Source: a virus
Taxonomy: Duplodnaviria > Heunggongvirae > Uroviricota > Caudoviricetes
Length of the DNA: 64,000 nt
IMG/VR virus record: IMGVR_UViG_3300049846_001486
Span: 1 to 64,000 of that record
Direction: 5' to 3' (one strand)
The position numbers and the translations under genes are program-made. How positions within the stretch are numbered: the first letter of the stretch is position 1; each line of letters opens with the position of its first letter. The notes under the pieces are model-generated. The model worked only from the letters and a program-made list of their open reading frames with translations, was not told where the DNA came from and made no database searches. Of the stretch, positions 1-35,900 are shown in pieces.

Positions 1-95
1 ATGCTTTGAACGCCTTTTAATTCTACCTTAGCTCCATTTGGAAAATGGTAGGTGCGGTCTTGTAGTTTAACTTTCTTGAATACTGGTTTAGTCAT
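1..95 (-). CDS. hypothetical protein, N-terminal fragment (gene continues past the window start); N-terminus MTKPVFKKVKLQDRTYHFPNGAKVELKG
   Basis: Minus-strand ATG at 93-95 preceded by a strong RBS (AAGAGGAAAATAT). The frame stays open to position 1. Confidence 0.35.
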   Translation of the reverse strand, partial: MTKPVFKKVKLQDRTYHFPNGAKVELKGVQS

Positions 96-114
96 ATATT
101 TTCCTCTTAAAAGA

Positions 115-235
115 TGGTGGCCAAGGTGGGACTCGAACCCACAAGCCCATTACGGGCGGCAGATTTTATGATGTACACTTTTTTCAAAATGTACAGGGAA
201 AAGTCTGCTGCGTATACCAATTCCGCCACTTGGCC
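115..235 (-). tRNA. tRNA-like gene, type II (long variable arm) with a 39-nt insertion in the anticodon arm; identity unresolved
   Basis: The reverse complement gives a 7-bp acceptor stem GGCCAAG/CTTGGCC, discriminator A and CCA. D-arm is GCGG-AATTGGTAT-ACGC and T-arm is GTGGG-TTCGAGT-CCCAC. The variable-arm hairpin is GCCC-GTAAT-GGGC. Anticodon-stem halves GCAGA and TCTGC are separated by 39 nt instead of 7, and the insert contains a TGTACA...TGTACA hairpin. Confidence 0.45.
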
Positions 236-254
236 ATATTATTATTTATCTATC

Positions 255-830
255 CTATTCTGCCATGTCTCCGTGGTGGTCAACTTTGGATATCTCTTGC
301 TTATCCATATATCTCTTTATTTCTTCAAAAGAAATCGGCCTGTAAGGGGCATAACCTAGTACGAATGGAGCATCTACCCCAACATCAACAGATTTGCCCA
401 TAGGAGGCAGCGAGCCGTGGCTATGGCCGTGTAGCTGCCAAGACCCATGATGGCTCTTGTTCCACACTCGCATCCCGTAATGAAGAAGTACGAGCTTCTG
501 GCGGTCAACCGTCAGTTCTTTGTAATATTGTATAGAAGCGAACACCTTATCTGATATAAGGCGTTGTATGTTATTTTCGATAACCTTATCGTGGTTACCA
601 AGTATTAGATGCTTAATCCCATTTAGAGAATTCATATATCTAACAAGCTCTTCATATTTCATAAAAGCAACATCACCCAGCATCCAAACAATATCATATT
701 GCTGAACTACTGAGTTCCAATTATCTCTAAGAGTCCTATTCATTTCTTCAACATCAGTAAACGGTCTTTTCGAGTATCTTATTATATTTGCGTGACCTAT
801 ATGATTGTCACTAGTAAACCATAGATTCAT
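255..830 (-). CDS. calcineurin-like metallophosphoesterase / Ser-Thr protein phosphatase family
   Basis: Motifs present are SDNHIGH (DxH), LGDVAF (GD), GNHDK (GNHD/E) and GHSHG. RBS GGAGA is present, with TAAATG coupling to the upstream gene. The gene ends in a TAG stop. Confidence 0.8.
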   Translation of the reverse strand: MNLWFTSDNHIGHANIIRYSKRPFTDVEEMNRTLRDNWNSVVQQYDIVWMLGDVAFMKYEELVRYMNSLNGIKHLILGNHDKVIENNIQRLISDKVFASIQYYKELTVDRQKLVLLHYGMRVWNKSHHGSWQLHGHSHGSLPPMGKSVDVGVDAPFVLGYAPYRPISFEEIKRYMDKQEISKVDHHGDMAE

Positions 831-1028
831 TTATTTCTTATCTCCATAATATTCATCACATTCCTTTTTTTGTATACATGCCGCATTTTTAACCATCATG
901 GAATCCCATAAACTTGGGTAAATCATAGAAGACCCGCATTTGGGGCAAATTCCTGCTGATAGTACACTAAATTCTACGATGATTCTGGCCGGTGGCGGTG
1001 GCGGTGGGGCTGGTATATCTTTGTTCAT
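831..1028 (-). CDS. small zinc-ribbon protein with a PPPPPPP tract
   Basis: 65 aa with CPKCG...CIQKKEC Cys pairs, translationally coupled to the downstream phosphatase. Confidence 0.4.
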   Translation of the reverse strand: MNKDIPAPPPPPPARIIVEFSVLSAGICPKCGSSMIYPSLWDSMMVKNAACIQKKECDEYYGDKK

Positions 1029-1042
1029 ATATTTTCTCTATC

Positions 1043-1118
1043 TGGTCCTTCCGGTGGGACTCGAACCCACACACAGTATTTTAGAGACACCTGCTCTAAC
1101 CAATTGAGCTACGGAAGG
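1043..1118 (-). tRNA. tRNA with a CUA anticodon (putative amber/UAG suppressor tRNA)
   Basis: A 76-nt cloverleaf. Acceptor is CCTTCCG/CGGAAGG with A73 and CCA. D-arm is GCTC-AATTGGTTA-GAGC. Anticodon stem is GGTGT/ATACT with two G.U pairs, and the loop is C-U-CUA-A-A, so positions 34-36 read CUA. Variable loop is GTGT. T-arm GTGGG-TTCGAGT-CCCAC is identical to the neighbouring tRNA-like gene. Confidence 0.6.
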
Positions 1119-1215
1119 TTCATTTATATAGGTATGTTAGCATATGTATAATTTCTTGTCAACAAAAGAAAAAGGGGCGTTTAAGCCCCTTTTCTTGAAT
1201 TAGGTATTACTACCA

Positions 1216-2664
1216 TTATTCGTCTTTTGCCGGATTTCCTTTGTTGTCAACCTTGGTATTAACCTGTAGGTCTTTAGCCAACATTAGCGTCATGACATTC
1301 ATCAAGTTTGCCATATCAGCCTGATTACCAGTTGGTACGCCAGCAGCGGATGCGCCACCACCCATGATTGTTACAGACTGTGGTACTGGACGAGTTGCCG
1401 AAGCAGCGGCCCATGTCTGGTGAATCTTGACAGCGGCCTCTAACTTAGTAGCCAAACCGTCGTCGGCCTTGATGCTCTTCTGCTTCTGATAAGCTTCGGC
1501 ATCGGCTCTAACCTTGATAGCCTGAGCATCAAGATTTGCGACTCTGACCTTAATAGCAGCAGCGCGTTCGTCAATCTTAGCCTGTTCTTCGGCTCTGCTG
1601 GCTTCAATCAAAGCCAATGCCTTTGCGGTTTCAGCAGCAGTAGTCTTAGCAATCTGCTCTTTCAAGTTTTCCTGCTGTGCTTCGGCCTGAGCGCGTTCAC
1701 CAGCAGCGATTACATACTGCTTCTGTTCTTCTTCCTGAATCTTCTTTTCACGGGCCTGTTGTCTGGCAGCGGAAGCTTCCTGAATTGATTGCAAACGCTT
1801 TCTGAACTGTGGGTTCGGTTCGAAGTCGGTCACGATGGCCGTTTCTACTGTGATGCCAAACTTCTCGAAAGTGTGGTGCAACTTCAAAGGCTGTCCGTTC
1901 TTATCCAAGATTTTGCTTACGCGGAAAATTACCTTGTATTCGTCCGCTTTAGCACCATAATCCTCTTGGTCTTTACGACGAGCAGAGTCGGCTGTAGCTC
2001 TCTGTTTAGAAGTTTCAAGGATTGGAACCTGAACTTCCTCACGCTGAACCTGATAGATACCAGTTCTCATTTGTTCATCGAAATCCGCAGCGAAAGTAGG
2101 GACGCCGCCGTTGAAGTAATCTTCGGCGCTCATTAACTGTGCTGTGGTTTTCATGGTTCTATCAATAGCCGGAATCAATTCCGTGTGTAGCAAGTTTTCA
2201 GGAGTGCGGTATTCCTGTGCCATCTTTAGGAAGGTAGCCGGGTCGTCTGAAATTCTGAAACGAACAGAAGTTTCCAACTTACCGTCAACCTTGTCTAACA
2301 TGGTTACATTAAGACCTTCTCTCTTGAAAGAGCCATCATCTGAGGTCTGTGTGTTTGATGTAATGACCGATGCGGCCTTTTTCCACGGGGTATAAGTACC
2401 AAACAAATGCATTTTCCAGCCAACGGTCGTTGATACCGATTCGTGACCTAAAATGTTTCTGATATGGTAATTGTAGCCGGGGTCTGCATAGAACCAAACA
2501 TTGCTGATGAATGTGACAGCGATGGCAAGGCCACCAACTCCCAAACTCAAAGCTTTAACCAAACCTTTAGTCCTACCGTAACGAGTTTCGTCCATTCCTT
2601 GGGAGAATTTATACCCAACGAATGTGGCTAAACTCAACAAAACTAACATAAAAATAGCGCCCAT
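1216..2664 (-). CDS. SPFH/band-7 (stomatin/prohibitin-like) membrane protein with a long C-terminal coiled coil
   Basis: N-terminal TM helix, then a roughly 200-aa globular domain, then about 200 aa of Ala/Glu/Lys/Gln-rich coiled coil. Strong RBS AGGAGAAAATAT. The SPFH fold is inferred from architecture only. Confidence 0.45.
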   Translation of the reverse strand: MGAIFMLVLLSLATFVGYKFSQGMDETRYGRTKGLVKALSLGVGGLAIAVTFISNVWFYADPGYNYHIRNILGHESVSTTVGWKMHLFGTYTPWKKAASVITSNTQTSDDGSFKREGLNVTMLDKVDGKLETSVRFRISDDPATFLKMAQEYRTPENLLHTELIPAIDRTMKTTAQLMSAEDYFNGGVPTFAADFDEQMRTGIYQVQREEVQVPILETSKQRATADSARRKDQEDYGAKADEYKVIFRVSKILDKNGQPLKLHHTFEKFGITVETAIVTDFEPNPQFRKRLQSIQEASAARQQAREKKIQEEEQKQYVIAAGERAQAEAQQENLKEQIAKTTAAETAKALALIEASRAEEQAKIDERAAAIKVRVANLDAQAIKVRADAEAYQKQKSIKADDGLATKLEAAVKIHQTWAAASATRPVPQSVTIMGGGASAAGVPTGNQADMANLMNVMTLMLAKDLQVNTKVDNKGNPAKDE

Positions 2665-2726
2665 ATATTTTCTCCTATGCTGGGATTGTGAATTGTACAG
2701 ATAACATTTCCAAAAGTCAACACTTG

Positions 2727-3371
2727 TTATCTTTTTATTTTTCTTCTTGCCATATCCAATTTTAACTTAGAAACTTTTGAAGTAAATACTACACCATGTA
2801 AGTGTTCGTATTCATGTAAGAATGCTCTAGCCCATATTCCTTCAAACTCTACGATATGTTCTTTACCATTTAAATCGAAGAATTTTCCTTTGACATTATA
2901 AGGTCTTGGTATTTTCAAAAACAATCCCGGAAAACTTAAACATCCTTCCATGATGGTTTCTGTTCTGTCCGATATTGAAAGAATTTCTGGATTGATACAC
3001 ACCCAATATCCGAAAGTTTTTTGTCCAATTACGAACATATTCAAATCTAAATTTACCTGTGGTGCGGCGAGACCTATACCCTGATTCTGAATCATAACTG
3101 CCAGCATGTTCAATGCCGTATCAGTCAAGTCTTCCGCCTTTCCAGTATAAGGAGGTATTTCTTTTTTCAATACATCATCATATTGGTCAACTAAGGTTAA
3201 TGTATCAAATATTTTCCCATGTAATTTTTGTCTCAATTCACCGGGAGTGAAGGTTGTATGAAAAGTTGTTCTATAATGGTCAATAATAGCAGGAGCTATA
3301 TCAGCCATACTCAAATTCCCCAATTGGTCGGAATTAATATCCAAGCCTACTCTGGTTAGCGTTTCATCCAT
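2727..3371 (-). CDS. def: peptide deformylase with an 85-aa N-terminal extension
   Basis: All three PDF motifs are present in order: GIGLAAPQ, EGCLSFPG and HEYEHLHG. RBS GGAGA lies 8 nt upstream of the ATG at 3371. Confidence 0.85.
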   Translation of the reverse strand: MDETLTRVGLDINSDQLGNLSMADIAPAIIDHYRTTFHTTFTPGELRQKLHGKIFDTLTLVDQYDDVLKKEIPPYTGKAEDLTDTALNMLAVMIQNQGIGLAAPQVNLDLNMFVIGQKTFGYWVCINPEILSISDRTETIMEGCLSFPGLFLKIPRPYNVKGKFFDLNGKEHIVEFEGIWARAFLHEYEHLHGVVFTSKVSKLKLDMARRKIKR

Positions 3372-4956: not shown

Positions 4957-7163
4957 TTTCCGCTAACTACTCTAGAGAATCCTTTATCTAGTTCTATTTC
5001 GATTTTATCATCGAACATAGTAGCTATTTCGTCTCTATGACTGATTACCAACATTGACAGTTTGTTGTCCGAAGCTATCTGTTTAATCATCTTACAAGCT
5101 AACTGTACTCCGACATTACTCAATCCACGGTCTAAGCATTCGTCTAATACACATAGATTTATGATGCCGTGTCTTGCCTGTAGAACATCTCTGAAGCTGA
5201 ACATCAACGCAAGATTCAATCTAGCTTTCTGTCCAGACGATAGCAGCTTATAACCGATTGGCGTCTTAAACTGGGTAATCTTTACAGTCATATCTTGCTG
5301 GAATTCTACCTTATGAGGTAAGCCAGTTTTGTTAAGGTAATATTTCAATTTGGAATTTAACAAAGGTAGTCCCTTGTTCAATAACGCCTTTCTTATGAAA
5401 CTGTCTTTCTTAGTAAGCAGCTTGACCAAGAATTCTTTATGGAATATGGAGTCTTCCAAATCTGCCAACATTTGACTTCTATCTTCACCAAGCTCAAGCT
5501 CGGCTTTATCCAAATCTTCAAGCATCGAATCGAACGGGTTGACAGATTCAATCGCTTTCTTTAGAGCTTCTTTGTAAGTCTTGACCTTCTGTTGCGAGAC
5601 CGCAAGTTCCGATTCTGATTTAAACTTGAGTTTCTTGGCAATAGCTTCGATATCTGTTTTAACGGAACTGACTTTATCTTTAGCTTCGGTTAATTGCTCA
5701 CTAGCCGTAGATATTTTGAATTCCAAATCATCAACGAACATATCATATAATCCGTTGACATGAGGATTTTTAGTTTCAGTCAATAGTCTTAGTTTACTGG
5801 TAAGTTTATCCTTAGATGCCTCGTAGTCAAAAATTTGTTTCAAGGTTTTGAAGGTGCTGGTTGCCTCTACCTCGGCCTTTGCTTTGGTATATTTTTTGGA
5901 ATTCTTATCCAATGTAGCAAGCCCGGTTTCTATATCAGCCAACTCCGTTTCTATTTCAGAAAGTCTTGAGTTAGTGTGTTGTAATTTCTCTGCTGCATCT
6001 TTGAACTGTTGCGAACAGAACGGGCACTTGTTGTCTTGAAGTGAAGTCTGGTCCTTCAGATATTTGGCTTGTTCCTTTTGAATTGTAGATTTTTTAGTCT
6101 CTAGAACGCTCTTTTCGGTTTGGATTTCTTTGAGTTTGACCGAGATATCTTCCAGTAGACTGATGTTTTCTTTTTCTACCTCAACATCAACCTCTGGTAT
6201 GGCTTCTATTTGTTCTCTTACGCTCTTAATTTCTTTTAGATTGTTGGCTTCCCACTCTACTGCCTTTGTTTTGAGTAAGGTGTTTTGTTTTATAGAAGTG
6301 TCAAGCTCTTTAACAGCAGCTTCAGCATTTGCTAAATCTGTAGAAGATGCAGCTAACCAAACGAAAAGTTCCTCTTGTTCATTAAAGTCTATACCAGCTA
6401 ATGCCTCAAGTTGTGTTTCTATAGTTTGGATTTCAGTCTGCTTTTCAGTCTCCCAATTATCCCTTTTGGTTATGAGGTTTTGTTTTTGAACCAAGAAAGC
6501 ATTCTTAGCCTTTTTGGTCTGTTCGTTCAATTCCAAATAATGGTCAAAGTCCTTTTTATTGTTGGTTATTTCTTTCTTGAGTAATTCTGCTTTAAGACTC
6601 AATTCCGTGAAGCCGAAAAGTTCTTCTATAACCTCTCGTTGGTCGCCTAATTCCATGTTCAAGAACGGTTCGTAGTTAGCGTCGAATACTACTATTCTAA
6701 CGAAGATTTCAAATGGAATGCCTATGATTCTGGAGATTTCCTCATTGATATTCGAAACTCCGGCTGGGGTTATATCATCGTCTTCGGTAAATTTGGTATC
6801 GGAAGTTCGCTTGAACAGCTTAACTCCATCTCCACCCTTAGCCTTGTTCTTCCTGTAGCGTTCCACTTTGTAATACGCATCTTTCTTTTGGAAGATGATG
6901 TAGACTTCTAGATTCTCTTCATTTATGTTGTTTATGACTTCAGTTTTTGATATTCCGGAAATGGTCTTATCGTACAACACATAACATAGAGCGTTCAAGA
7001 TACTGGACTTACCTGCTCCGTTGCCGTCAACTTGCCCATCAACTGCGGAATCCAAGTTTCTTCCTATAATCAGCTTGGGCTTACCGAAGTCCAAACTAAT
7101 CTTAGTCATGTTGTTTCCATACGACTGGAAGTTTCTAAACCCGAGTTCCAATGCCTTAAACAT
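4953..7163 (-). CDS. 46: recombination ATPase, Rad50/SbcC family (T4 gp46-like)
   Basis: Walker A GNGAGKSSIL, central coiled coil with a CPFC zinc hook, ABC signature LSSGQKARL, Walker B VLDECLD and H-loop ISHRDE. It overlaps the upstream gp47-like gene as in T4. Confidence 0.9.
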   Translation of the reverse strand: MFKALELGFRNFQSYGNNMTKISLDFGKPKLIIGRNLDSAVDGQVDGNGAGKSSILNALCYVLYDKTISGISKTEVINNINEENLEVYIIFQKKDAYYKVERYRKNKAKGGDGVKLFKRTSDTKFTEDDDITPAGVSNINEEISRIIGIPFEIFVRIVVFDANYEPFLNMELGDQREVIEELFGFTELSLKAELLKKEITNNKKDFDHYLELNEQTKKAKNAFLVQKQNLITKRDNWETEKQTEIQTIETQLEALAGIDFNEQEELFVWLAASSTDLANAEAAVKELDTSIKQNTLLKTKAVEWEANNLKEIKSVREQIEAIPEVDVEVEKENISLLEDISVKLKEIQTEKSVLETKKSTIQKEQAKYLKDQTSLQDNKCPFCSQQFKDAAEKLQHTNSRLSEIETELADIETGLATLDKNSKKYTKAKAEVEATSTFKTLKQIFDYEASKDKLTSKLRLLTETKNPHVNGLYDMFVDDLEFKISTASEQLTEAKDKVSSVKTDIEAIAKKLKFKSESELAVSQQKVKTYKEALKKAIESVNPFDSMLEDLDKAELELGEDRSQMLADLEDSIFHKEFLVKLLTKKDSFIRKALLNKGLPLLNSKLKYYLNKTGLPHKVEFQQDMTVKITQFKTPIGYKLLSSGQKARLNLALMFSFRDVLQARHGIINLCVLDECLDRGLSNVGVQLACKMIKQIASDNKLSMLVISHRDEIATMFDDKIEIELDKGFSRVVSGN

Positions 7164-8232
7164 CGCCTAAATCCTTATATACTTTAATCAATTTCTGGTT
7201 ATCTATCTTAGGTTCTTTGATACGCCCTAGCAATTCTACCACAATGTTGGTAGTAGTTTCCAGTTCCATTCCTTCCAAATCCATATCCGTGTCAGTCAAC
7301 GCTTCATCGGTTGACATTTCCTCAAAGGTCAATTCTCTAAGCCCATATTTTTTCATGAGAGTATCACGAAGTTCGTTACTATCTTCTAGAGTCAAGTCTA
7401 TGTCGGCTAGGCATCTTACCCTTGCGTTCTTCTTAAGGTGGGTGTCCGGGTCTTCTATAATCTCGCTTAAGTTGGCTTTAACATAAGTAGGCATACCGAA
7501 GTCTGCTCCCCAGTTATAGAATGATGATGCGTCATCGTCGTAAGAATATAAAAAGGCTCCGCGTTCAGCGTCATTAGCATCGCTGAAGTCTGCCGGAAAT
7601 GCGTTGCCGATGTAACAGACATTATCCTTACATTGGCGCTTATGGAAGTGTCCAGAGAATATATGCTTTACGGCTTTGTATGGCTTGTGGTCCGGACCAT
7701 GTTCCAACACTCTAGTATCACCAGTTATAACGAATCCGGAGAACTCGAAATGTCCCCACCATATCGGCATGTTCGTGTATTGTAACAGTTCTGGATACTC
7801 TTCCGGCATCAAATACGGACTAACCAAAGCTCCCTTATCTCCCAACATAGGGAATATCTTCGGGGAATCATAAACTAGAGTTATGTTTTCAAACGGAGCG
7901 AATATTTCAGTAGTGTATACATCTCTCTTATCACGGTAATACATATCGTGGTTACCGACGCACATGATTACCGGAATCCCAAGCTGGTTTAATAGTTCCG
8001 CTCCCATATGAGAGTATTTGAGAGTTAAGCCATTGATAGCAGCGCGATGTTCGTGCCAGTCCCCCAAGAACATTATATGGTCTACCTTTTTCTTTTTTGC
8101 CAACTCACAGAACCATTTAATGAAATTGATACAATCTTGGTTATGAGTTTCACTATTGTTCTTTCGTCCAAAGTGTATGTCAGTAAAAACTAAAGCTTTC
8201 TTTAGTTTGACCGATTCATCTAGTTTTGACAT
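7156..8232 (-). CDS. 47: recombination nuclease, Mre11/SbcD family (T4 gp47-like)
   Basis: Phosphoesterase motifs FTDIHFG, FLGDWHE and GNHDM are present. It sits in the T4 47-46 arrangement next to gp55. Confidence 0.85.
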   Translation of the reverse strand: MSKLDESVKLKKALVFTDIHFGRKNNSETHNQDCINFIKWFCELAKKKKVDHIMFLGDWHEHRAAINGLTLKYSHMGAELLNQLGIPVIMCVGNHDMYYRDKRDVYTTEIFAPFENITLVYDSPKIFPMLGDKGALVSPYLMPEEYPELLQYTNMPIWWGHFEFSGFVITGDTRVLEHGPDHKPYKAVKHIFSGHFHKRQCKDNVCYIGNAFPADFSDANDAERGAFLYSYDDDASSFYNWGADFGMPTYVKANLSEIIEDPDTHLKKNARVRCLADIDLTLEDSNELRDTLMKKYGLRELTFEEMSTDEALTDTDMDLEGMELETTTNIVVELLGRIKEPKIDNQKLIKVYKDLGDV

Positions 8233-8986: not shown

Positions 8987-11722
8987 ATGGCCGCTAAGAC
9001 CCCAGAAGAACAACAAGCACAAGAAGCTTTTGCTAGCCTTATCAAATCTTTAAAAGAAACAGAAATTTCTATGAAGGATTATAGAAAGGAAGTAGAAAAG
9101 ACATATCCAGCGTTTAAAAACCTAACTACAATCCTAAAAGGTGCATCAGGGTTGACTACCTTAATGGATGAGTTTAAAGATGAACTTAAAGACTTACAGG
9201 AAGACTTTGAACAAACTGCTGGAGAAAATAAAGAATTAGCTGATAGAATGAAAAAAGCATCTGACAGCGTTTCTCAATTTACAAGAATCAATCATAAAAA
9301 TGTTGACAAACTAAAAAGTTTCAAAAAATCTATCGAAAGCGTCTCATCTGCTACCAAGGCTTTAAAATCCGTTCAAGATTTATCGGCAGAATCGTTAGAA
9401 GCATTATCTAAGAAAACTAAAGTACATAACGATATGTTAGCTCAAATGAAAGTTGAGGGAGCTTCCCTTAATGTTTCCATCTTGCAACAATTGAAGGAAC
9501 AGCAAGACCTTAAAGAAAAGGAAATGAGAAGCATAGAAAAATTCAATAAACGAATTTCCGAAATCTCAGAAAAATTGAAAAATGGAAGTTTGTCTGAAGA
9601 TGCTGAAAAATACAATAAAGAGTTGTTACAAGTATTGACTTCTAAGCGAGATGAAAAAAATAAATCAATCTCAGATATTAATAAAAAGTTAACACAACAT
9701 CTTAATGCTATGCACGAAAATACAGCAATGCTTGGTGCAACCGCTAAAACTTTTGATAAGACTTTAAAATTCAATAAAGAGGCTATGGGCGAATTTCGTT
9801 CTGCTATAGTTCAAGTTGGCGAATCTTTAGCCAAAGTAGTAAAGGGCATAACACAAAATGCTATAGGAAATGCTAAATCCAGAGCGCAAACGACTCAATC
9901 TACAAGCATTCTTGAAGGGTTGATTACCGCAGGTAAGGGCGGTGTATCTCAAGGACAATTGTTTGATTATTACAATGCTAGTAAAGGTAATTTAACATAT
10001 GCAGCCGGAAATCAAGATACTAAAGAGTTTGCAAAAGGTCGCTTTGATAAATTTGAAAGCGCAACAGAAAACTTGGGATTAGTTGGGGAAGAAGCCATTG
10101 CCTATTTACAACAAATGGATTCTAGAGCAGTAGAAGGCGGTTATGCTTCTAAATTAGATTCTGCCACTACCTTCGAGTTAAACAATTTTAGAAAATTAAA
10201 AGACACTTTAAGTTTGACTATGGAAGATACTATAGACTTATATGCAGAATTAGCAAAAAATCAAGAACTTCTATTAAAGGCTACTGACCCAAAAACTGGA
10301 AAAGTCAATCAAGCGTTGCTAATGCGTCATGTAAGAACTCTTGCGATGGAAAATAAGCTAAGAGGCATAACAAATGATAAACTTAAAGAAACTATAAAAC
10401 AACAGTTACAGACTCAGACCAATAATCGTTATTCTAATAATATCGGAGATGTTTACAGAAAAGCTATAGGGCAAAGATTATTAGCCCAACAATCCGGGGT
10501 TCAACTTAGTGAAAAAGAATTTCAGTTATTAATAAAAGCAGAAAGTGGTGGTGCATCCGCTGATGAAATGTCAACCGTATCCGACATTAAAAAGCGCATT
10601 GCTAGAGGCGGGCAGAAATCTATTTTGAAAGCTTCTCAAACTGGTGATTTGGGAACGAGAGAGGTGGGATTAAGATTTGCTCAAATTGGGGGTATTAGTC
10701 CTGAAGAAATGGAAGGTTCCATAGCCCAAGACCGCGTACAAGCTAACAGAGGTATGGCTGGTTACGAACATATAAAAAACAAAAAAGGCGAATATATTTT
10801 AGGTTACGATAAAGAAGGTAAAGAAATTCCATTTACGGAAGACCAAAAGGCTATATTATCACAAAATCAAATCGCATTAGATGCGTTTACTCCTGCTATA
10901 GATGATTCCACTAAAGCTTTGATATTTCTAAAAGAAGCAGCCGATGGCGTTAGCAAATCTGTATTTGGTGGGGTAGGCTCCGGAATTGCTGGGTTGTTTC
11001 AGGGTGCAACAAACGCCCTAGGAACAGGAGCAGCATTACATTTAGCAACAGGAGGTAAATCAACTTCTATGTTATCTAAGGCTCTGGGTATAGGGGGAGC
11101 AGCAACAGCCGGTTCAGCAACGGCTAGTGCTGTGGCCGGAGGCGCTGCCATAAGAGGAAGTGGTATGATTTTAGGTGGTAAGGCGGTTCCATTACCGGGA
11201 GCAGCACCTATGGGTACTATGGCTAAATTAGCGCGAGGCGGTCCTATAGTTGCTAGTGCGCTAGCAGTTGGTCAACAATTAACTACTTCTTTTGAAGAAA
11301 TGGAGCAAAATGTTGGAATCACAATTGGTGATAGCGCAAAGAAAGCTGCTGGAGTGTATTCAGCAAACTTCTTTAAAAATGTCGGTGATAATATGACATT
11401 AGGATATGCAGATAATATAGGAAAAGCTTTAGGCGGCATTGCTTACAATTTATTGGATGAGGAAGATGCGGATAATCTCACAGCTTTGAGTGATGTGTGG
11501 AATGAGTTAGTTCCGGTATTCATGGAAATTAAAGATAATACAAAGACTAGCGCAGAGAAAGCCGCAGAAGATTTGAAAAGACAAAAAGACAAGAACGCCA
11601 AAGACGAAGCTAAGGCGGCGGCAGATAAAAAGAAAGAAGAGCGTCAAACTGCATTAGATATGGCTATAGCATCTTCAGCACAAAACTTAAGAAATTCTGG
11701 ATTCGGCCCAAGAGGTATGTAA
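8987..11722 (+). CDS. large virion-associated hypothetical protein (911 aa) with N-terminal coiled coils and a Gly/Ala-rich hydrophobic C-terminal region; tape-measure or ejection-protein-like
   Basis: The first roughly 350 aa are heptad-rich. The C-terminal part carries segments such as GGVGSGIAGLFQGATNALGTGAALHLATGG and GIGGAATAGSATASAVAGGAA. The gene lies immediately upstream of portal. Confidence 0.35.
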   Translation: MAAKTPEEQQAQEAFASLIKSLKETEISMKDYRKEVEKTYPAFKNLTTILKGASGLTTLMDEFKDELKDLQEDFEQTAGENKELADRMKKASDSVSQFTRINHKNVDKLKSFKKSIESVSSATKALKSVQDLSAESLEALSKKTKVHNDMLAQMKVEGASLNVSILQQLKEQQDLKEKEMRSIEKFNKRISEISEKLKNGSLSEDAEKYNKELLQVLTSKRDEKNKSISDINKKLTQHLNAMHENTAMLGATAKTFDKTLKFNKEAMGEFRSAIVQVGESLAKVVKGITQNAIGNAKSRAQTTQSTSILEGLITAGKGGVSQGQLFDYYNASKGNLTYAAGNQDTKEFAKGRFDKFESATENLGLVGEEAIAYLQQMDSRAVEGGYASKLDSATTFELNNFRKLKDTLSLTMEDTIDLYAELAKNQELLLKATDPKTGKVNQALLMRHVRTLAMENKLRGITNDKLKETIKQQLQTQTNNRYSNNIGDVYRKAIGQRLLAQQSGVQLSEKEFQLLIKAESGGASADEMSTVSDIKKRIARGGQKSILKASQTGDLGTREVGLRFAQIGGISPEEMEGSIAQDRVQANRGMAGYEHIKNKKGEYILGYDKEGKEIPFTEDQKAILSQNQIALDAFTPAIDDSTKALIFLKEAADGVSKSVFGGVGSGIAGLFQGATNALGTGAALHLATGGKSTSMLSKALGIGGAATAGSATASAVAGGAAIRGSGMILGGKAVPLPGAAPMGTMAKLARGGPIVASALAVGQQLTTSFEEMEQNVGITIGDSAKKAAGVYSANFFKNVGDNMTLGYADNIGKALGGIAYNLLDEEDADNLTALSDVWNELVPVFMEIKDNTKTSAEKAAEDLKRQKDKNAKDEAKAAADKKKEERQTALDMAIASSAQNLRNSGFGPRGM

Positions 11723-11756
11723 TGTTCTATTATTTAAAGCATTGCAATAATTTGGC

Positions 11757-11764
11757 TATAAATA
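11757..11764 (+). promoter_or_regulatory. T4-type late promoter motif TATAAATA upstream of the portal gene
   Basis: Exact TATAAATA lies 20 nt upstream of the ATG at 11784. Confidence 0.45.
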
Positions 11765-11783
11765 GTTAAATAGGAAAAACTGT

Positions 11784-13520
11784 ATGTCGAAGTTAGCTAA
11801 GTTTTACAAGATAGTAACCCCAAAGAGCGCCGCTGCCGATGTTAGAGATAACATTGACATTACCGGCATGGGAGGCGGTGCCTACGGTAATTATACTTGG
11901 TATCATCGTTTAGTACAGGGTTCCCCCGCTCGTTTGACCAGATATCGTGAATACGACATTATGGATAACGATGTTGAAGTGGCCAGAGCTTTGGATATTA
12001 TAGCCGAAGAAATGACCGGAAATAACCCTAAATCTAACCTTCCACTAGAACTTCACATAACAGACACCAATGTACCTGCTCATATAGTCGCCACTTTAAA
12101 GGCGGCTTTGAATACATGGTGTAAATTACAAAACTGGGATAAACGCCTTTATGGTGTTGCCAGAACTACCATCAAATACGGAAATTGCTTTTTCTTAAGA
12201 GGAAAAGGTAATAATAAAGGGAAGAAGTGGAAATATGTAAATCCTAAAGCCGTGGTCGCAGCAGTAACCTCCGAAGACGATATTACGGATGTTCGCGGCT
12301 GGCATATTAAGGTTGATACAAAGCGTATTAATGGTCTTAACCAAGGTTATTCTTTGGGTTACAATTCCAATGCTAATCCGGGGGATTATAATGTTGAACA
12401 GTTCCCGGCTGATGATGTTATTACTTTCGCTCTAGAAGATGAATTTAGCGAAGATGCTCCTTTCGGTAAGTCGGTATTAAGTGCTGTTTATAGAACCTTC
12501 AAACAGAAAGAATTGTTGGAAGATTCGATAATAATTTACAGAATAGTAAGAGCGCCAGAAAAAAGAGTATTCTATATTGATACTGGTAAGATGCCTCCGC
12601 ACCAAGTCGCCACTCACTTAGAACAAATCAAAAACGAAATTAAACAAAAGAAGATTCCTACCTTCCAAGGCGGTCAATCTCAAGTTGAATCCGTCTATAA
12701 TCCTCAGTCTATGTCAGAAGATTTCTTCTTCTCCAAGAGAGCAGACGGTTCCGGGTCTTCGGTAGAAACCTTACCGGGCGGTCAAAACTTAGGCGAATTA
12801 ACTGATTTGAACTACTTCTACAGCAAATTGTGGAGGGGGTTAAGAATTCCTGCTTCCTATATGGATAGTGAAAAGGAAGGTTCTTATAACGATGGTAAGG
12901 TCGGAGTCGCTTATATCCAAGAAATCAAATTCTCTCAATATGCTGAACGCTTACAGAAAGACCTAGAAATTACTTTGGATAAGGAATTCAAGAGATTCTT
13001 ATACGAGACTGGCATCAGTATTGACCCAACTTGCTATAACATTCTATTACCCGCTCCTTCTAACTGGTCCAAGTCCAAGCAGCAAGACATTGATGCTAAC
13101 TTGCTTAATAACTTCAATACCGCCGTTGGTAATGAATTCTTATCAAGAAGATTCGTTCTTGAACGCTATTTACAATTGAGTAAGGAAGAAATTGCCACAA
13201 ACGAAAGAATGAGAGCCGAAGAATTAGGATTACCATTTGAAGGTGGTATGAATAATTTAGGAAAGATTTATTATCCTGAAGTGGCCGAGGCCGGTGGTTT
13301 TGATGGCGCTGCCAGCGGTGGCGGCGGTACTAGTGGTGGCGGAGGTGGCGGAATTCCATTAGGCCCAGATACAGAATTAGATGATATTGAAGGCGAAATG
13401 GGCGGTGATGAAACCGATTTAGGCGGTGAAGATACTGGCGAAGAAGCTGGTGGAGATAATGAGGCTCCAGATTTAGAAGCTCCTGAAAAGGGACTTCCTC
13501 AAGAAAAGCCACCTAAATAA
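11784..13520 (+). CDS. 20: portal vertex protein (T4 gp20-like)
   Basis: About 578 aa, directly upstream of the prohead protease. Internal sequence VYNPQSMSEDFFF resembles conserved gp20 segments. The C-terminal tail is Gly-rich and acidic. Confidence 0.7.
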   Translation: MSKLAKFYKIVTPKSAAADVRDNIDITGMGGGAYGNYTWYHRLVQGSPARLTRYREYDIMDNDVEVARALDIIAEEMTGNNPKSNLPLELHITDTNVPAHIVATLKAALNTWCKLQNWDKRLYGVARTTIKYGNCFFLRGKGNNKGKKWKYVNPKAVVAAVTSEDDITDVRGWHIKVDTKRINGLNQGYSLGYNSNANPGDYNVEQFPADDVITFALEDEFSEDAPFGKSVLSAVYRTFKQKELLEDSIIIYRIVRAPEKRVFYIDTGKMPPHQVATHLEQIKNEIKQKKIPTFQGGQSQVESVYNPQSMSEDFFFSKRADGSGSSVETLPGGQNLGELTDLNYFYSKLWRGLRIPASYMDSEKEGSYNDGKVGVAYIQEIKFSQYAERLQKDLEITLDKEFKRFLYETGISIDPTCYNILLPAPSNWSKSKQQDIDANLLNNFNTAVGNEFLSRRFVLERYLQLSKEEIATNERMRAEELGLPFEGGMNNLGKIYYPEVAEAGGFDGAASGGGGTSGGGGGGIPLGPDTELDDIEGEMGGDETDLGGEDTGEEAGGDNEAPDLEAPEKGLPQEKPPK

Positions 13521-29902: not shown

Positions 29903-32900
29903 GTGAGCAAATCTGATTATACCAAAAAGAGTTTCAATTTTAATGACTACTTACCGGGCAACCTAAGAACTGCCATCGCTAATAGTCTTAACGATAACCT
30001 ATATAATCGTTTTTATAGCAAAGACGAGTATCAGCATGTAATCGGCGTCATAGGTACTCCAAACCCAACAGATGCCTCCCAGCGTCAAATTATAGAAGCA
30101 ACTGAATATCGTCAGAATAATCAATTACAGCCCGTAATAACCGCCCAAATTGGTGCAACTAAGTACCATATGACTTTTGAGGATATGCTCAATAAGTTGG
30201 AAACATTAGGGGTGGATATTTCTCAATACCCACAATGGGGAAACTCTCTACACTTTAATTGGGTTCCGCCTATTGATTTAGACAAACTAATCAATTATCA
30301 GAACTATTTCTGGGTAACAGATGATACCCAAGATAAACCACAATACATCACTATAAAGAATCATTGTAATTGGGTCTTGGCTAGATTGCGCCAAATTAAG
30401 AAATCTGTAGCAGGAATTTATGAAAACTTTACTATAGATTCTATGGATTTAGGCACCAATGAAATAATCATCCTCGGCAATAAGCTTTCTAAATTTAGTG
30501 TTGGTGAATTTTTAGTATTGTGGAACACAGAAAAGACCTATGAAGTTTTCGAAATAACTGGAACTTCCTATAATTCTGCAACAGAAGAAACTAGAATACA
30601 ATTCAATACCGCTCTTCCAGCAGATGTTACCTTTACCTCCGCCGCTAAAACGCAACAGGACATAAAGACCACCGACGCATTCAATAACTATTTCGTGTTA
30701 GACGGTGACGCTACAGCGTTGTTCAAACAAGGGTATGTTTTCATAACACAGGGCAGCGACTTATTGCCCAGCACATATTGGAAAGTAGATAAATCCGAAT
30801 ACATCGCTCAGGGTGAAACCACTCGCATTTATCCAACCTTAGATATTCCAGCCAACGCAGACTGGACCATTATAAATTCCCTACCATTAATTGTTATGGC
30901 CGAGGCCGAGTACAAAGTAGCTTGTGAAGACTCTAGTTTAGACTACATACAAAACTGGGCAGACTTCAGAGTTGGAGACATAATCTGGCACAAATATTAC
31001 ACGGTCATAGGGCAACAGACTACGGGACAAACCACATTAGGCTCTAATGTGTTTACTGACCCTACCACAAATTTCACGGATATGGGAGTCGTTGCCGGGA
31101 ATATTTTGAGAATCACTTCGGGACATAAAGTTGGAGATTTTCCAATCGTTGATGTTTTGGATTATGATTTAACATTGTCGGATGCTGATGTATTCTTTAC
31201 TCAAACTGGCGTAACTTACGAAATAGTAAAAGAATTAGCTATTGATGATTTTAGGTCTGAAGAAGAACCAACTTCTCCGGCAGTATACGACTATTGGTTC
31301 GATACGATTAACGATAATTTAAATCAATGGAACGGATTAAGTTGGGTAACCAGACAGGGCAATTTCAGTTTAATTTTGGATTTGACAAACGACAGACATA
31401 CCTTAGATATCCTTCAAACGGATGATTGGTCTACCCAGAATAAGTGGATACACAGAAACGATGTTGGAGCCGTGTCGGGTAAAACTAGAGCGCAGCTACC
31501 AATCATAGAGTTCAACCCTTTCTTAGAAATGGCAACTACTTCCTATGTTAAGAAAGCTTGGAGATATAGAAAAACTGCATCTGCCGGGTACGCCTCGGTT
31601 GATGAACAACCAACATTGATGGAATTGATTCTTGTTGATGATTTTTCTTTCTTGGATGCTTCAACAATAATTTTCCACGAAAAATACGGTAACCTCACTT
31701 CCGATATAGTTGCTGGAGTTAAGCTAAAAATAGTAAACTCTTCTTTGGGTGAAAATAACGGAGAATACGAAGTAGCATCTTCTGAATATGTGCAGTTATT
31801 TCCTACAGAAAGATATGTCAGTAAAGTAACTTTAACTACCACAGTTCCTAATCCTCTAAACAGTACGGGAAACATAATTCCATCTAAAACTGCGGTCGGA
31901 GATTTGTTCTTGGGTATAGACCAACAACAATGGATGTTTGACGGTATAGAAGAAATCGTCCCATCCAGTAAAAAACCAACAGCAAATCCCATGTTATCCA
32001 TATTCGTTTCGTCTGATACTGACGGAACTTTAGATACTTTGTTGGGTATGGTTTGGCAGGAATTTAAATACAATACTACTACCGAAGAAGTAGGTCCAAC
32101 ATTTACTTTAGATGATTCATTACATGATTTGTGTCTTTTTGAAGATTACCAAGAAGGTGATTTGCGTGTCTATATAAATGGTGTAAGACAGTATGGTAAT
32201 TTTACAGAAGCTCGTTCCGGATTGAATCAGGAATATGTAGGTTCTATAACCTTCAATGATACGGTAACCATAACAGACAGCGATGTTGTTAGAATTGAAT
32301 TAGGGGAAGCATATTCTCTGGATATAGGCAGAAGAAGTGTACAAATAAACACTCCTACTACATTCGATGAAAAGTTCAACTTGGTAAATTACAAAAAGAC
32401 TGAACAGATAAAATTGGATACTAATGAATATCCATATTTCTGTATTTTTGATATATTCGGAACGGCTTTGGATTTCGCTTCCAAAATTTTTAGCTTCAAG
32501 GAAAATTCAGAAAATGAAATCAATCCTCATGTATCTAGAAGATTAGACTACAACGAAACTACCAGAGATTATACATTCGTACAAGGATTGTTGGGTGAGT
32601 CCCAAGAATTATACCAATATAAAGATTATCAAAAGATTGCTAACGAATTACAGTCTGTGTGGAAGGCTGGAGAAAATCTAGAACAGTTCGTGCCTTACAA
32701 AGAAAACGATGCTTGGGTAATCCCACAACAGCTATATTACAATGTTAAACACGAAAACAGAGAAGAAGTAAAATTAACTGAAATCTTCACCCATTTCAGA
32801 AACATAATAGAAAATCAGACCGCTCCATCAATATACAGTCTGACCGGAAACCTATATTACATTGATGATAATGTCAATTACGGTATAGGCGGCACTATTA

Positions 32901-35900
32901 AAGAATACAACGACAATTTCTCCACATTAGTTTCTTCGCTATTTGTGAATAATGTAAACCCGATTTCCGTAATACAGTTTGCACATAATCAGTATTTGAG
33001 TAATCTCGAATACATTAAGAATACATTAAGAACCAATATATCTTCGTTATTGTTGAATACTGAAGCTGAAGATTTAACAGAATTGACTAATTACATAATA
33101 GTCTCAGTAAAGGAACAATTTGAGGGTAATGACAGATTGGATTTGTGGTTCGGGGATAGCACAACTTATAACGAGCTTACCAAAACCGGTATTAAAAACT
33201 GGATAGCCACATTGCCTTATTTCGGATTAGTACCGAAAGTAGCTCCGTATTACATAAAAGACTCAGTTCTCGGAATTTCCGAAATGGTTCACCATGACGG
33301 TCACAGAACCCAGTTGGCTTATGATATAGCAATCAAAGAATTGATAATTAAGAACATAATAGACAATTCTAACAATGAACAGCAGATTGTAACTTCAGAT
33401 TCTGAACCATTACCAGTATTGATTAATGGCAATACTGCTAAAGACAATGATTATGTAATCAGAACAAACACTACTACTAAGACCAGAAAAGTCTATCGTT
33501 ATAGCGTAGCTAATTCTTGGGAATTAGTAGATTTCGATGATATATTGTTGAAGACTATATTGTTCATAGAACAGAAGCTTTATGAGAATTGCCCGACCAG
33601 AGTATTCTTAAATTTCAACATGGATTCGGTGAGATTGAATACTGCTTATCAAGATTTGGTAAAACAGCAGTTCTCCACATATTTGAAGAACAATCAAATA
33701 AAAACGCCTTATGACAACAAAGAATATAAGACTAACGACCCATTTACATGGAACTACGGATATACAACTATATCCACTCATCCGATGACCGGGTTGCCAT
33801 CGTCAGATGTTAAAGCAACATGGCAAGCATTATACGAAAAGGTATATGGAACTCCATACCCACATTTAGAGCCTTGGGTATTGCAGGGATATAGAATCAA
33901 ACCAGATTGGTGGGATTCTTATTATTTGAATACTAATCCATTGGTTGATAGACTATGGAAATCAACGATGTGGAACAATATATTCAATGGTATCGTACCT
34001 TTAAACAAAGATACACCTACTGGTGCCGCAGGTACAGGCGCTGCCGGTCAATTGACCGAAGTGTTCGATTTCGTATCTGTCAATGTTGATGATACTCCTA
34101 CATTAGACGGAATCAAACCCGATGGTTTGTTACCACCGTATTGGAATACCAACAATACTACCGACCCTAGAGTAAGGTCGCTATATGACGCTTCCATTCA
34201 AGAATACATAACTAATCCACAAACTGGTTATGAATTTACGCAGAGAGGCCCAAGTGAATGGAAATGGGAAGTGTCTGCCCAGCGTCTTTACGATGATGCC
34301 ATAATCGCTTTCAAACTTCAACCAATGCGCTTCATGAACCAATTATTCGGCAACTCTTTCCAAAATGTTGCCGCATTGCAAGTGGAGACGACAAACCAAA
34401 GAGTCTTCACCCCGGAATTAACCATATTCCACGGTGATTTGATTGGTGACACAAATGTAGTTTACAAAACCAATGGATTGAACCAATGGTATGTTCACTA
34501 TAACCGTTATAACGGATTCGATGGACTGTCTTCGGAATTCAGAACCTTATGGAAGAATTGGGATGTTAAATTGGGTTATGCGGTCGGCGGATTTATTGAT
34601 ACCTCAAGTTTGAGTATTTTCAACAACACTTTCGACTTAAGCACTAAAGATTACACCGTTGATATTAAGAAAACTCATGGAATATCTAACAAATGGTTGG
34701 ATTCCTTGACTTTGACCTCGTTGAGCGTACCATCCAAAACAGCAAAATATAGAGATTCTGGATTGGGATGGACAGTAGAAATTGACACCAATTCTATTTA
34801 CGGAAAGCCTGTAGAATACTATCAACCTCAGAAATACCAATTTAAGGTATTGGACGATAATGAAACTTTCAGAAGCTTTGCTTACGATATAAGCGGAGCA
34901 GACATTTCCCAAGTCCAAGGGTATCAATTAGTCAATTATAATCAGTCTTCTTACAATCAATTAGAAACAGATTTGGATAATACATTCTTCTTGTATTATG
35001 CCGATGTTTTGGTTGATAATACCACAACAATAAATTTGGCCATATATGGTGCAAATGCTCAGACCTTCGCAGAAGCTATAACAGAAATCAACGCCCAATT
35101 GGGTGACTATGCTATAGCTTATATTCAAGAAGGTAATATCATAATCAAGAGCAAGACTATAGGCATAACCTCGGCTATAGAAATAACTGATGCGGGATTG
35201 TTCGCATCGTTAGATACAGAAAAATTCTCTGGATTGGACGCTCCACAACAAACGCAGTTGAAGTTCAACGGACGCTTTTATGTTGATGGAAACATCATGT
35301 CTGTGATGGAAGCCGGGAACGAAATTACAGTTTCTGATTCTACCAATTTGAACGGAACTTACACCATCAGAGATGTGTATTTCGACATAGTAACAGGAAA
35401 GACAATAATCAGCATATCTGAAGATATAGTCATTTCCGATTCTACGATAGATGGTGAAATTTATTTGGTAGGAGAAACTACCTTAAATTCTTTCCCAGAT
35501 GAATGGGTTGACGGAACTCAAGTTACTCTAACTACGACCCAAGTAGCGCCATCCGGAATGACGGAAGATGCAGTATACTACTTCAAGAAATTAACCAATA
35601 CGGATTTCGCATTGTATACTGATTCTAGCTTAACTAACCAAGTAACAGTAAACAGTTCTGGCTCAGGCCAGCACAGTATTGGGGTTGTTGTAGGAACCTT
35701 CAAAGCTCTCAATGGAAGCGCCACTCAAACATCGTGGAAGAAATATAAGTTCGATAAGAGACAGACTAATAAAATATATCCGCCAATTTATGTATCTACC
35801 ATACAGAGTATAATTGATTTGATTTTGGGATACGGAGAATATGCTACTGATATCGGATTCTTATTAAAGACAGAAGGCCGTAACAATATTGATGAACAGA

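Follow-up and report, generated by a model that had tools for sequence, protein, structure and literature searches.

A 33-nt hairpin at position 34/35 of a phage tRNA-Leu(UAA) gene, a probable mini-intron, and the family of interrupted tRNA genes to which it belongs

A tRNA gene with an interrupted anticodon arm lies at positions 115–235 of a 64,000-nt stretch of a tailed-virus genome (Caudoviricetes; IMG/VR record IMGVR_UViG_3300049846_001486, positions 1 to 64,000). This stretch, hereafter the window, is a part of a larger genome. The gene is probably a working phage tRNA-Leu(UAA) that carries, between U34 and A35, a hairpin mini-intron of 33 nt, for which we infer splicing (tRNA-style numbering is used throughout, with 34/35 as the insertion site). 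Comparison indicates structural selection on an intact tRNA body, and excision of the insert between U34 and A35 is predicted to yield the canonical tRNA-Leu(UAA) loop CUUAAAA. The insert belongs to a family of at least 44 distinct sequences from viral and metagenome contigs, and within the intron interpretation it is best read as a protein-dependent mini-intron, for which joining by an RNA ligase appears plausible.

The gene is encoded on the minus strand (235..115), with its 5' end at 235 and an encoded CCA at 117-115 next to the discriminator A at 118, 121 nt in total. The initial annotation, made from the sequence alone, had placed a tRNA-like gene with an anticodon-arm insertion at 115-235 without giving the strand, and Rfam, ARAGORN with the intron option (-i), the predicted fold and our covariance model (R1, below) all agree with that placement. 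Read from 235 to 115, the RNA begins with GGCCAAG-UG-GCGG-AAUUGGUAU-ACGC-A-GCAGA, followed by CUU, the insert and AAAA, and ends with UCUGC-C-GCCCGUAAUGGGC-UU-GUGGG-UUCGAGU-CCCAC-CUUGGCC-A-CCA. The 5' strand of the anticodon stem, GCAGA (tRNA positions 27-31; 204..208), pairs with the 3' strand, TCTGC (tRNA positions 39-43; 159..163), according to the sequence and the fold, and this helix covaries across the family. These halves enclose 40 nt, namely the 7-nt anticodon loop and the 33-nt insert; the insertion itself had thus been recognized, while its proposed length of 39 nt needed correction. The 5' exon ends with C32-U33-U34 (CTT, 201..203) and the 3' exon starts with A35-A36-A37-A38 (AAAA, 164..167), and together they make the loop CUUAAAA with the anticodon UAA. 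The putative intron (168..200) is made of a 5-nt linker TTCCC (200-196), a 10-bp hairpin with the strands TGTACATTTT (195-186) and AAAGTGTACA (181-172) capped by GAAA (185-182), and a 4-nt linker TCAT (171-168), or, as RNA, UUCCC-UGUACAUUUU-GAAA-AAAGUGUACA-UCAU with UGUACAUUUU/AAAGUGUACA as the helix. An extended rod of TTTT/AAAA plus TGTACA/TGTACA had been proposed for this segment; a rod is indeed predicted, with an upper helix that is really 10 bp long under the GAAA cap. The hairpin occurs once in the window, where none is expected by chance.

The body shows the features of tRNA-Leu: a long type II variable arm GCCC-GTAAT-GGGC (145..157, minus strand), A73, and the D arm GCGG-AATTGGTAT-ACGC, and each half matches annotated phage tRNA-Leu genes. 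The RF00005 model is matched over its full length (positions 1-71), the score of 47.1 bits (E = 3e-8) being well above the gathering score of 29, and the alignment leaves a 36-nt block unaligned in the anticodon loop. The acceptor, D, variable and T arms, described as canonical from the start, are borne out by this end-to-end match and by the cloverleaf fold. The T arm GTGGG-TTCGAGT-CCCAC (126..142, minus strand) is, as previously noticed, also found in the neighboring CUA tRNA at 1118..1043. In the minimum-energy fold (-48 kcal/mol, z = -4.8) the cloverleaf has an anticodon arm shaped like a rod, and 0 of 200 shuffled sequences folded as well; the predicted geometry of the arm is 8 nt, 10 bp with a loop of 4, and 8 nt. 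An intron search had been suggested with the initial annotation, and ARAGORN with the intron option indeed called tRNA-Leu(UAA) with a 33-nt intron ('gactt-intron-aaaat'); the Leu anticodon UAA appears only once the insert is removed. Removal of 33 contiguous nucleotides allows only three loops, CUUAAAA (UAA, Leu), CUUUAAA (UUA, ochre suppressor) and CUUUUAA (UUU, Lys). Cutting at 34/35 is predicted to create the junction CAGCAGACUU to AAAAUCUGCCG (also written GCAGACUU to AAAAUCUGC).

The window gene has many relatives. With a search pattern consisting of the Leu D arm, GACTT, 25-45 nt, AAAATC and the T arm, we found 17 loci in IMG/VR and 57 loci in JGI metagenomes, corresponding to about 40 distinct genes after duplicates and tandem-tRNA artifacts were removed. 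The same pattern retrieved no true member from 185,579 bacterial and archaeal GTDB species (one genome per species), where its three matches were truncated tRNA halves followed by a complete tRNA, and the exact anticodon arm of the window gene has no copy in IMG/VR. Every one of the 38 full-length pattern-scan members has seven of seven acceptor pairs and A73, and most of them encode CCA. They share an anticodon arm that runs from the 5-bp stem through about 8 nt into a roughly 10-bp helix with a small apical loop, and back through about 7 nt to the other stem strand; the internal loop between the anticodon stem and the insert helix thus measures about 8 x 7 nt. The covariance model R1, trained on 14 members, separates 42 interrupted genes (73-126 bits) from ordinary tRNA-Leu (at most 68 bits), and the window gene falls within the member range with 110.5 bits. 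We define the family by an intact body, an insert at 34/35 with a helix of about 10 bp and a small loop, linkers of 3-5 nt on the 5' side and 3-4 nt on the 3' side, and a cognate 7-nt loop after excision. Two further tRNA-Leu members (L399 and L411) were found among the motif-scan matches listed, which brings the family to its lower bound of 44. Among the contigs with family members are IMGVR_UViG_3300023235_000008 (230 kb), Ga0222649_1000002 (208 kb), 3300003332_000015 (146 kb) and 3300024978_000004 (135 kb). The commonest insert length is 32 nt (range 29-42, with one outlier of 61 nt), 39 of 42 members have 7 nt on the 3' side of the internal loop, and the 5' linker loosely follows Y-U-N-C-R. 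The 5' flank is CTT in all 42 aligned members, with the loop CUU/AAAA in 41 and CUU/AGAA in one, a conservation that is partly built in, as most members were found with a pattern demanding CTT and AAAA. Only a cut at 34/35 gives a Leu anticodon in every family member.

In the 42 aligned members covariation is seen in every helix, that of the insert hairpin among them. In this alignment (A4), 98.1% of cells are paired compared with 65.9% in shuffles and 32-46% in slid registers, counts that are inflated by the fitting of the alignment to the model; the covariation score is 0.846 versus 0.219 in shuffles, and 0 of 500 shuffles reached 0.846. In the insert helix, 95% of cells are paired and nine of the ten pairs show changes on both sides, with U.G at the eighth position in 28 of 42 members, while four of the five anticodon-stem pairs show double changes. 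These data bear on the idea of a pseudogene, in which a palindromic or mobile hairpin element would have inserted into the anticodon loop and inactivated the tRNA. Such an origin might be imagined in phage tRNA clusters, which are rich in mobile endonuclease open reading frames (ORFs; GIY-YIG-like and HNH-like, by motifs only) that recur in family loci. Nevertheless, the 42 diverged members keep every helix and intact acceptor stems, the tRNA helices changed compensatorily after the insert was already there, the hairpin is unique in the window, and outside tRNAs the full hairpin occurs, among the matches listed, only in four distinct GC-rich coding sequences (six loci) that look like chance. 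The covariation already largely refutes the pseudogene idea, which we consider barely credible.

The closest relatives illustrate how the gene has changed. Related DNA is present in the sequencing runs SRR35532381 and SRR23086391. An identical gene is carried by one contig from Logan (L163), and a more distant contig (L164) preserves the gene order of CUA tRNA, phosphoesterase and interrupted tRNA, its metallophosphoesterase being 85% identical in protein and 77.8% in DNA to that of the window. The exons of the two tRNA genes differ at 15 of 88 positions, and 12 of these positions belong to six compensated pairs, of which the acceptor stem holds three and the D, anticodon and T stems have one apiece; the variable arm is identical. 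Of the 33 insert positions only 3 differ, with two of the changes in the apical loop, one in the 3' linker and none in the 20 stem nucleotides or the 5' linker. The compensated exons and the nearly unchanged insert show that the structure of the tRNA is preserved together with the insert, which is not decaying. Comparison with homologous tRNAs, which the initial annotation had advised, turned up an insert-bearing relative as well as 44 distinct sequences elsewhere, and the degraded pseudo-tRNA that it had envisaged in relatives was not what this relative carried, its body being intact with six compensated pairs. The insert may be more conserved than the exons, although the numbers are too small for significance; it is at least as conserved.

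That degree of conservation might also be expected if the transcript were never spliced and served as a tRNA-Leu-shaped RNA with a non-decoding job, such as a decoy or inhibitor of an anticodon nuclease or a defense protein, a leucyl donor, or a regulatory precursor. Bacterial leucyl-tRNA synthetase (LeuRS) does not read the anticodon. No splicing machinery was recognized in the large window ORFs, and phage contigs hold many Leu-like scaffolds whose middle is no anticodon arm, both of which would suit such a role. Yet an RNA of this kind has no need for flanks that rebuild cognate loops in Leu(UAA), Leu(UAG), Tyr(GUA) and CAU tRNAs, and it would be unexpected where the gene fills a decoding slot: in 10 of 12 arrays of at least 11 tRNAs, the interrupted gene is the sole Leu(UAA), standing beside intact Leu(UAG/CAA/AAG/GAG) genes. 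We regard a purely non-decoding role as unlikely. In the window, TTA and TTG account for 32.6% and 36.1% of the Leu codons in 45 ORFs (69% together), and a tRNA-Leu(UAA) would hence be in heavy demand.

Support that does not depend on the search pattern comes from tRNAs of other identities. A second interrupted gene on one contig (L150), found with the model, reads CUU-insert-AGAA and is a tRNA-Leu(UAG) with a homologous hairpin at 34/35. A tRNA-Tyr(GUA) gene (L157) reads CUG-insert-UAAA and carries the hairpin AGAGUGUCUGC-UAAA-GCGGGUAUUCU, which is clearly homologous to the Leu hairpins. A tRNA(CAU) gene (L215) reads CUC-insert-AUAA and has the same linker-hairpin-linker architecture, which we call similar rather than homologous. 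Excision at the corresponding point restores the cognate loops CUG/UAAA (Tyr) and CUC/AUAA (CAU). The position of the insert is constant while the exon bases differ, suggesting a position rule independent of exon sequence. We also carried out a flank-neutral scan that demanded only the D arm, the T arm, A73, CCA and excess spacing. Six of its clean anticodon-stem cases belong to the 34/35 family, and the rest of the clean cases form a second insert class at 31/32 or 32/33, whose excision restores Leu(UAA), Leu(GAG), Leu(UAG) and Tyr(GUA) loops. The second-class inserts are 23-49 nt long, lie at the 5' edge of the loop in type II tRNAs, and several start with GCCTTA; their loci are L242 (1324-1459), L258, L289, L304, L324, L317 (8247-8360), L226 (4432-4541) and L310 (2288-2416). 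Genes for tRNA-Thr(UGU) and tRNA-Gly(UCC) bear different inserts after N34.

Several established classes of insert were considered and rejected. A group I intron, which has a catalytic core (P3-P9), some 180 nt or more, a terminal G and a U.G pair in P1 at the 5' splice site, is incompatible with 33 nt, a single hairpin, no core, and a last base that is U here and varies across the family instead of being G; no Rfam intron family matched positions 1-3000 of the window at E values up to 10. The thought that the insert might descend in reduced form from the tRNA-Leu(UAA) group I intron, self-splicing or trans-spliced by a ribozyme such as a group I core located elsewhere, draws on the insertion site, which it shares with the group I intron in cyanobacterial and plastid tRNA-Leu(UAA) (PMC13011429), and on a phage tRNA-Leu(UAA) (L003) with a long 34/35 insert that looks group-I-like by eye. 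Against it stand a length of 29-42 nt compared with 184-894 nt for bacterial tRNA group I introns (PMC13011429), the plain hairpin structure, the variable last base and the empty Rfam intron search, and a remnant of this kind seems very unlikely to us. A group II intron, a six-domain ribozyme several hundred nucleotides long that often carries a reverse transcriptase ORF, is excluded by size alone. A bulge-helix-bulge (BHB) intron, in which a 4-bp helix separates two 3-nt bulges that hold the splice sites, does not fit because the two helices are predicted to be joined by an internal loop of about 8 x 7-8 nt. For a cut at 34/35, the 4-bp helix between intron nucleotides 1-4 and A35-A38 would have two of four pairs here (UUCC) and one of four in the CUACG subtype (CUAC), the commonest, and a BHB at 33/34 would require U as the last intron base, which most members do not have. 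No EndA/TSEN-type enzyme was seen among the large window ORFs scanned against Pfam and PHROGs, a scan in which no dedicated search for such enzymes was made. A repeat or a terminator is ruled out by the uniqueness of the hairpin in the window, the lack of a T-run after it on either strand and a terminator scan of positions 1-1400 that placed no site there. An intron at the canonical position 37/38, which ARAGORN offers for some members, would inconsistently yield Arg, Lys, Glu or Phe anticodons on Leu bodies. The initial annotation had left three readings side by side, of which the small non-canonical intron is favored by the comparative data. An elongated working arm that displays the anticodon on its apical loop is not, as the apical loops vary between members, measure 3-14 nt with one exception and have no U33-like pattern, hence are not anticodon-like.

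If the 33-nt hairpin is a mini-intron, a protein endonuclease would cut the transcript on both sides of the internal loop. The position of the insert is constant relative to the stem and the hairpin while exon bases vary, so the enzyme might read structure or distance (3 nt past the anticodon stem and 3 nt past the hairpin) rather than exon sequence. The two halves would be held together by the tRNA body, as are the substrates of anticodon-loop RNA ligases, and sealed by an RNA ligase. A phage ATP-dependent Rnl-type ligase could act if the ends are 3'-OH and 5'-P, for example after cleavage by host RNase III, and RtcB if a metal-independent nuclease leaves 2',3'-cyclic phosphate and 5'-OH. RNase III is known to leave 3'-OH/5'-P ends that can be joined by Rnl enzymes, and we take it to be a candidate endonuclease, since the arm presumably resembles its processing signal of lower stem, internal loop and upper stem. 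The spliced product, of roughly 88 nt, would decode UUA and UUG. As a speculation, the benefit could be to couple tRNA maturation to phage-controlled enzymes or to hide the precursor from anticodon nucleases.

Genes of RNA repair are found near some of the family tRNAs, which would make a ligase plausible. On one contig (L215), the interrupted tRNA(CAU) has an Rnl5/NgrRnl-type RNA ligase gene (PF21189 and PF09414; ORF 437-1450) 2 kb away, and an interrupted tRNA-Leu is 9 kb distant from this ligase gene. A second ORF of 183 aa there (11372-11920) has ligase-like motifs and no Pfam match, and these two ORFs flank the two interrupted tRNAs on this 25-kb contig. Polynucleotide kinase (PNK)-like kinases occur beside such tRNAs in L202 and L154, and Thg1-like genes in L153, L194 and L202. 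RNA-repair ligases are common in tRNA-rich phages and cluster with phage tRNAs (PMC7824862).

The same hairpin might be excised by host RNase III with the ends staying unjoined, giving a nicked or split tRNA or functional halves. The precedent is the intervening sequences (IVS) of 23S and 16S rRNA, helical inserts that replace a loop and are removed post-transcriptionally by RNase III, leaving the fragments unjoined. A putative resemblance of the rod to phage RNase III processing sites and the constant length of the upper stem, which suggests a ruler, would be in keeping with this model. A tRNA broken within its anticodon cannot decode, but this gene occupies the Leu(UAA) slot; nor does the model agree with the conserved exon flanks and the RNA ligase genes in some family loci. 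Excision without joining thus appears improbable, and a tRNA cut in its anticodon, in contrast to rRNA, must be rejoined to decode.

Several points speak against a spliced mini-intron. Besides the inflated pairing counts and the partly built-in flank conservation mentioned above, we found no intronless allele in IMG/VR, and none closer than 84% among 47 distinct tRNA-Leu(UAA) genes from the loci compared, so that the exact boundaries of the insert are not fixed by allele comparison. Simple excision fails to give a cognate anticodon in some other inserted Leu-like phage tRNAs, L311 for one. Among the large ORFs of the 64-kb window, which represents only a part of the genome, we recognized no RNA ligase, RtcB or PNK, and no candidate for a splicing endonuclease emerged among the co-occurring genes of 66 family loci. 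The recurrent gene clusters in the 66 loci resemble homing-endonuclease ORFs (GIY-YIG, HNH and PD-(D/E)XK-like, by motifs only) and are not tRNA-adjacent.

The proposed mini-intron differs from the systems already described. Protein-spliced tRNA introns are regarded as a hallmark of archaea and eukaryotes, and the tRNA introns described in bacteria and their viruses are, to our knowledge, only self-splicing group I and rarely group II introns. The archaeal and eukaryal BHB introns (processed by EndA/TSEN and RtcB or Trl1) are likewise short, structured and not self-splicing, with halves held by the tRNA body, and are presumably recognized by shape or distance, as we propose here; however, their canonical site is 37/38, whereas the present site is 34/35, without BHB support and in a bacterial host. 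The tRNA-Leu(UAA) group I introns of cyanobacteria, plastids and some other bacteria share the gene and the U34/A35 point, but they are 184-894 nt long and self-splicing, with a P1-P9 core and a terminal G (PMC13011429), in contrast to a 33-nt hairpin that ends with U. The anticodon-loop repair of T4 (PrrC cut, Pnkp, Rnl1) is alike in the break and religation next to the wobble base with specialized phage ligases (PMC7824862); it repairs damage to host tRNA, whereas no encoded insert is removed, and such genes were not recognized in this window. A short non-group-I insert at this position had been judged unusual for a phage tRNA, and the sole precedent that we found is the 'enigmatic introns' in the tRNAs of Lak megaphages, reported in 2019 by Devoto et al., according to whom no intron in a phage tRNA had been described until then (PMC6784885). 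The Lak introns are also short non-group-I inserts in phage tRNA genes and are highly conserved in sequence; they interrupt Phe(GAA), Gly(UCC), Thr(UGU) and Tyr(GUA) tRNAs of gut megaphages, one of them seemingly containing a tRNA, and this comparison is by description, not by sequence (PMC6784885). A full-text literature search returned no description of the 34/35 hairpin family and no later explanation of the Lak introns. What is new here is therefore the definition of the 34/35 hairpin-insert family, phage tRNA introns having already been hinted at (PMC6784885).

A wider proposition would be that tailed phages carry an undescribed class of tRNA introns, hairpins of about 32 nt at 34/35 of Leu-UAA, Leu-UAG, Tyr-GUA and CAU tRNAs, removed by a structure-measuring protein cut-and-ligate pathway. 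We put this forward tentatively, as somewhat short of an even chance. If true, it would be a counterpart in the bacterial world of archaeal and eukaryal tRNA splicing, the decoding of UUR codons would hinge on phage-controlled processing, and phage RNA ligases would gain a routine role in tRNA maturation; a dedicated bacterial or phage splicing pathway would make the finding categorically new. A conserved, covarying hairpin of 30-40 nt at a fixed site points either to an unrecognized splicing activity in infected bacteria or to an unrecognized use of tRNA-shaped RNA. For the RNA ligases and end-healing enzymes found in clusters with phage tRNA genes, the family also suggests a concrete function that can be tested. 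Default ARAGORN missed the window gene and reported only the neighboring CUA tRNA; because standard bacterial tRNA finders miss such genes, phage tRNA inventories and codon-supply analyses are biased.

The window is part of the genome of a T4-like myovirus, with genes for portal, SbcCD, helicase, baseplate, gp15-like protein, sheath, tube and a family B DNA polymerase; a Gp23-type capsid gene lies just outside the window start. No cultured phage is close: a megablast search with 8 kb gave no match among 50,697 phage records, and neither did a subtype-A pre-tRNA query. A metallophosphoesterase gene (255-830, minus strand) ends 19 nt upstream of the interrupted tRNA and the next minus-strand gene follows downstream, while an ORF on the plus strand (114-359) that overlaps the tRNA is an artifact of mechanical ORF listing. 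The metallophosphoesterase was considered as an RNA end-healing enzyme and dismissed, its only relative in the PDB being an uncharacterized protein. Its synteny with the tRNA is missing in relatives of about 60% identity, and the adjacency is treated as incidental.

The neighboring tRNA with the anticodon CUA (1043..1118, minus strand; ARAGORN, and Rfam with 65.4 bits) is of the amber-suppressor type, encodes CCA and lies outside the insert. It has a sigma-70-like promoter, TTGACA-17-TAACAT, at 1162-1134 with a terminator just upstream (1194-1169). It is kept in L164, and CUA tRNAs accompany interrupted tRNA-Leu genes also in L148, L156 and L192. There is no in-frame TAG recoding in the window; TAG terminates 4 of 45 ORFs, and readthrough of the four clearest TAG-ended genes would add 2-10 codons. 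None of the 45 ORFs of at least 100 aa ends with TGA (41 TAA, 4 TAG), and the coding density is 92% under the standard code, for which reason TGA is seemingly avoided, not recoded.

Other unusual tRNA genes were observed during the scans. A 230-kb phage (L200) carries two homologous inserts of about 80 nt after UUAUG in two different tRNAs (6137-6303 and 8055-8210). An insert after U34 of tRNA-Thr(UGU) is 75 nt long with three hairpins, and tRNA-Cys and tRNA-Asp genes have hairpin inserts near 37/38; the loci listed for these inserted tRNAs include, besides the two above, L200 7794-7893, L184 177-326 and L224 10218-10335. The phage tRNA-Leu(UAA) with the group-I-like insert (L003, about 11840-12000, minus strand) consists of a 3' half preceded by the long structured sequence at 34/35, and a related contig (L007) has an uninterrupted gene. 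The tRNA-Leu-like scaffolds form a very large class, present on more than 100 IMG/VR contigs among the matches listed (L028-L147, e.g. L033 and L112, and also L251), a typical one having the sequence AGTCAGG-TG-GCGGAAT(T)GGTAGACGC ... ACAGGTTCGAATCCTGT-CCTGACT-A. In these scaffolds 60-85 nt of structured and highly variable sequence take the place of the anticodon and variable arms. A pseudoknot and an 8-nt loop AGYCGRAA occur in some subtypes, and the Rfam tRNA matches of the scaffolds are weak. Three contigs (L047, L097 and L107) encode type II tRNAs with the loop CUGUUUA (GUU, U37), a variable arm of about 38 nt and a GCCA end. In metagenome-assembled genomes (MAGs) of Alphaproteobacteria and in soil metagenomes (L165-L167, L176, L178, L179, L197, L199, L201 and L223), a tRNA-Leu 5' half is cut off exactly in the loop CTTAAAA, about 5-10 nt before a complete tRNA-Leu(UAA), an arrangement that looks like an integration or recombination scar at the anticodon loop. 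Lastly, a single ORF of 4457 aa spans positions 29903-43276 of the window on the plus strand, with a strong local GC-skew anomaly of -0.41 in the 40-44 kb region.

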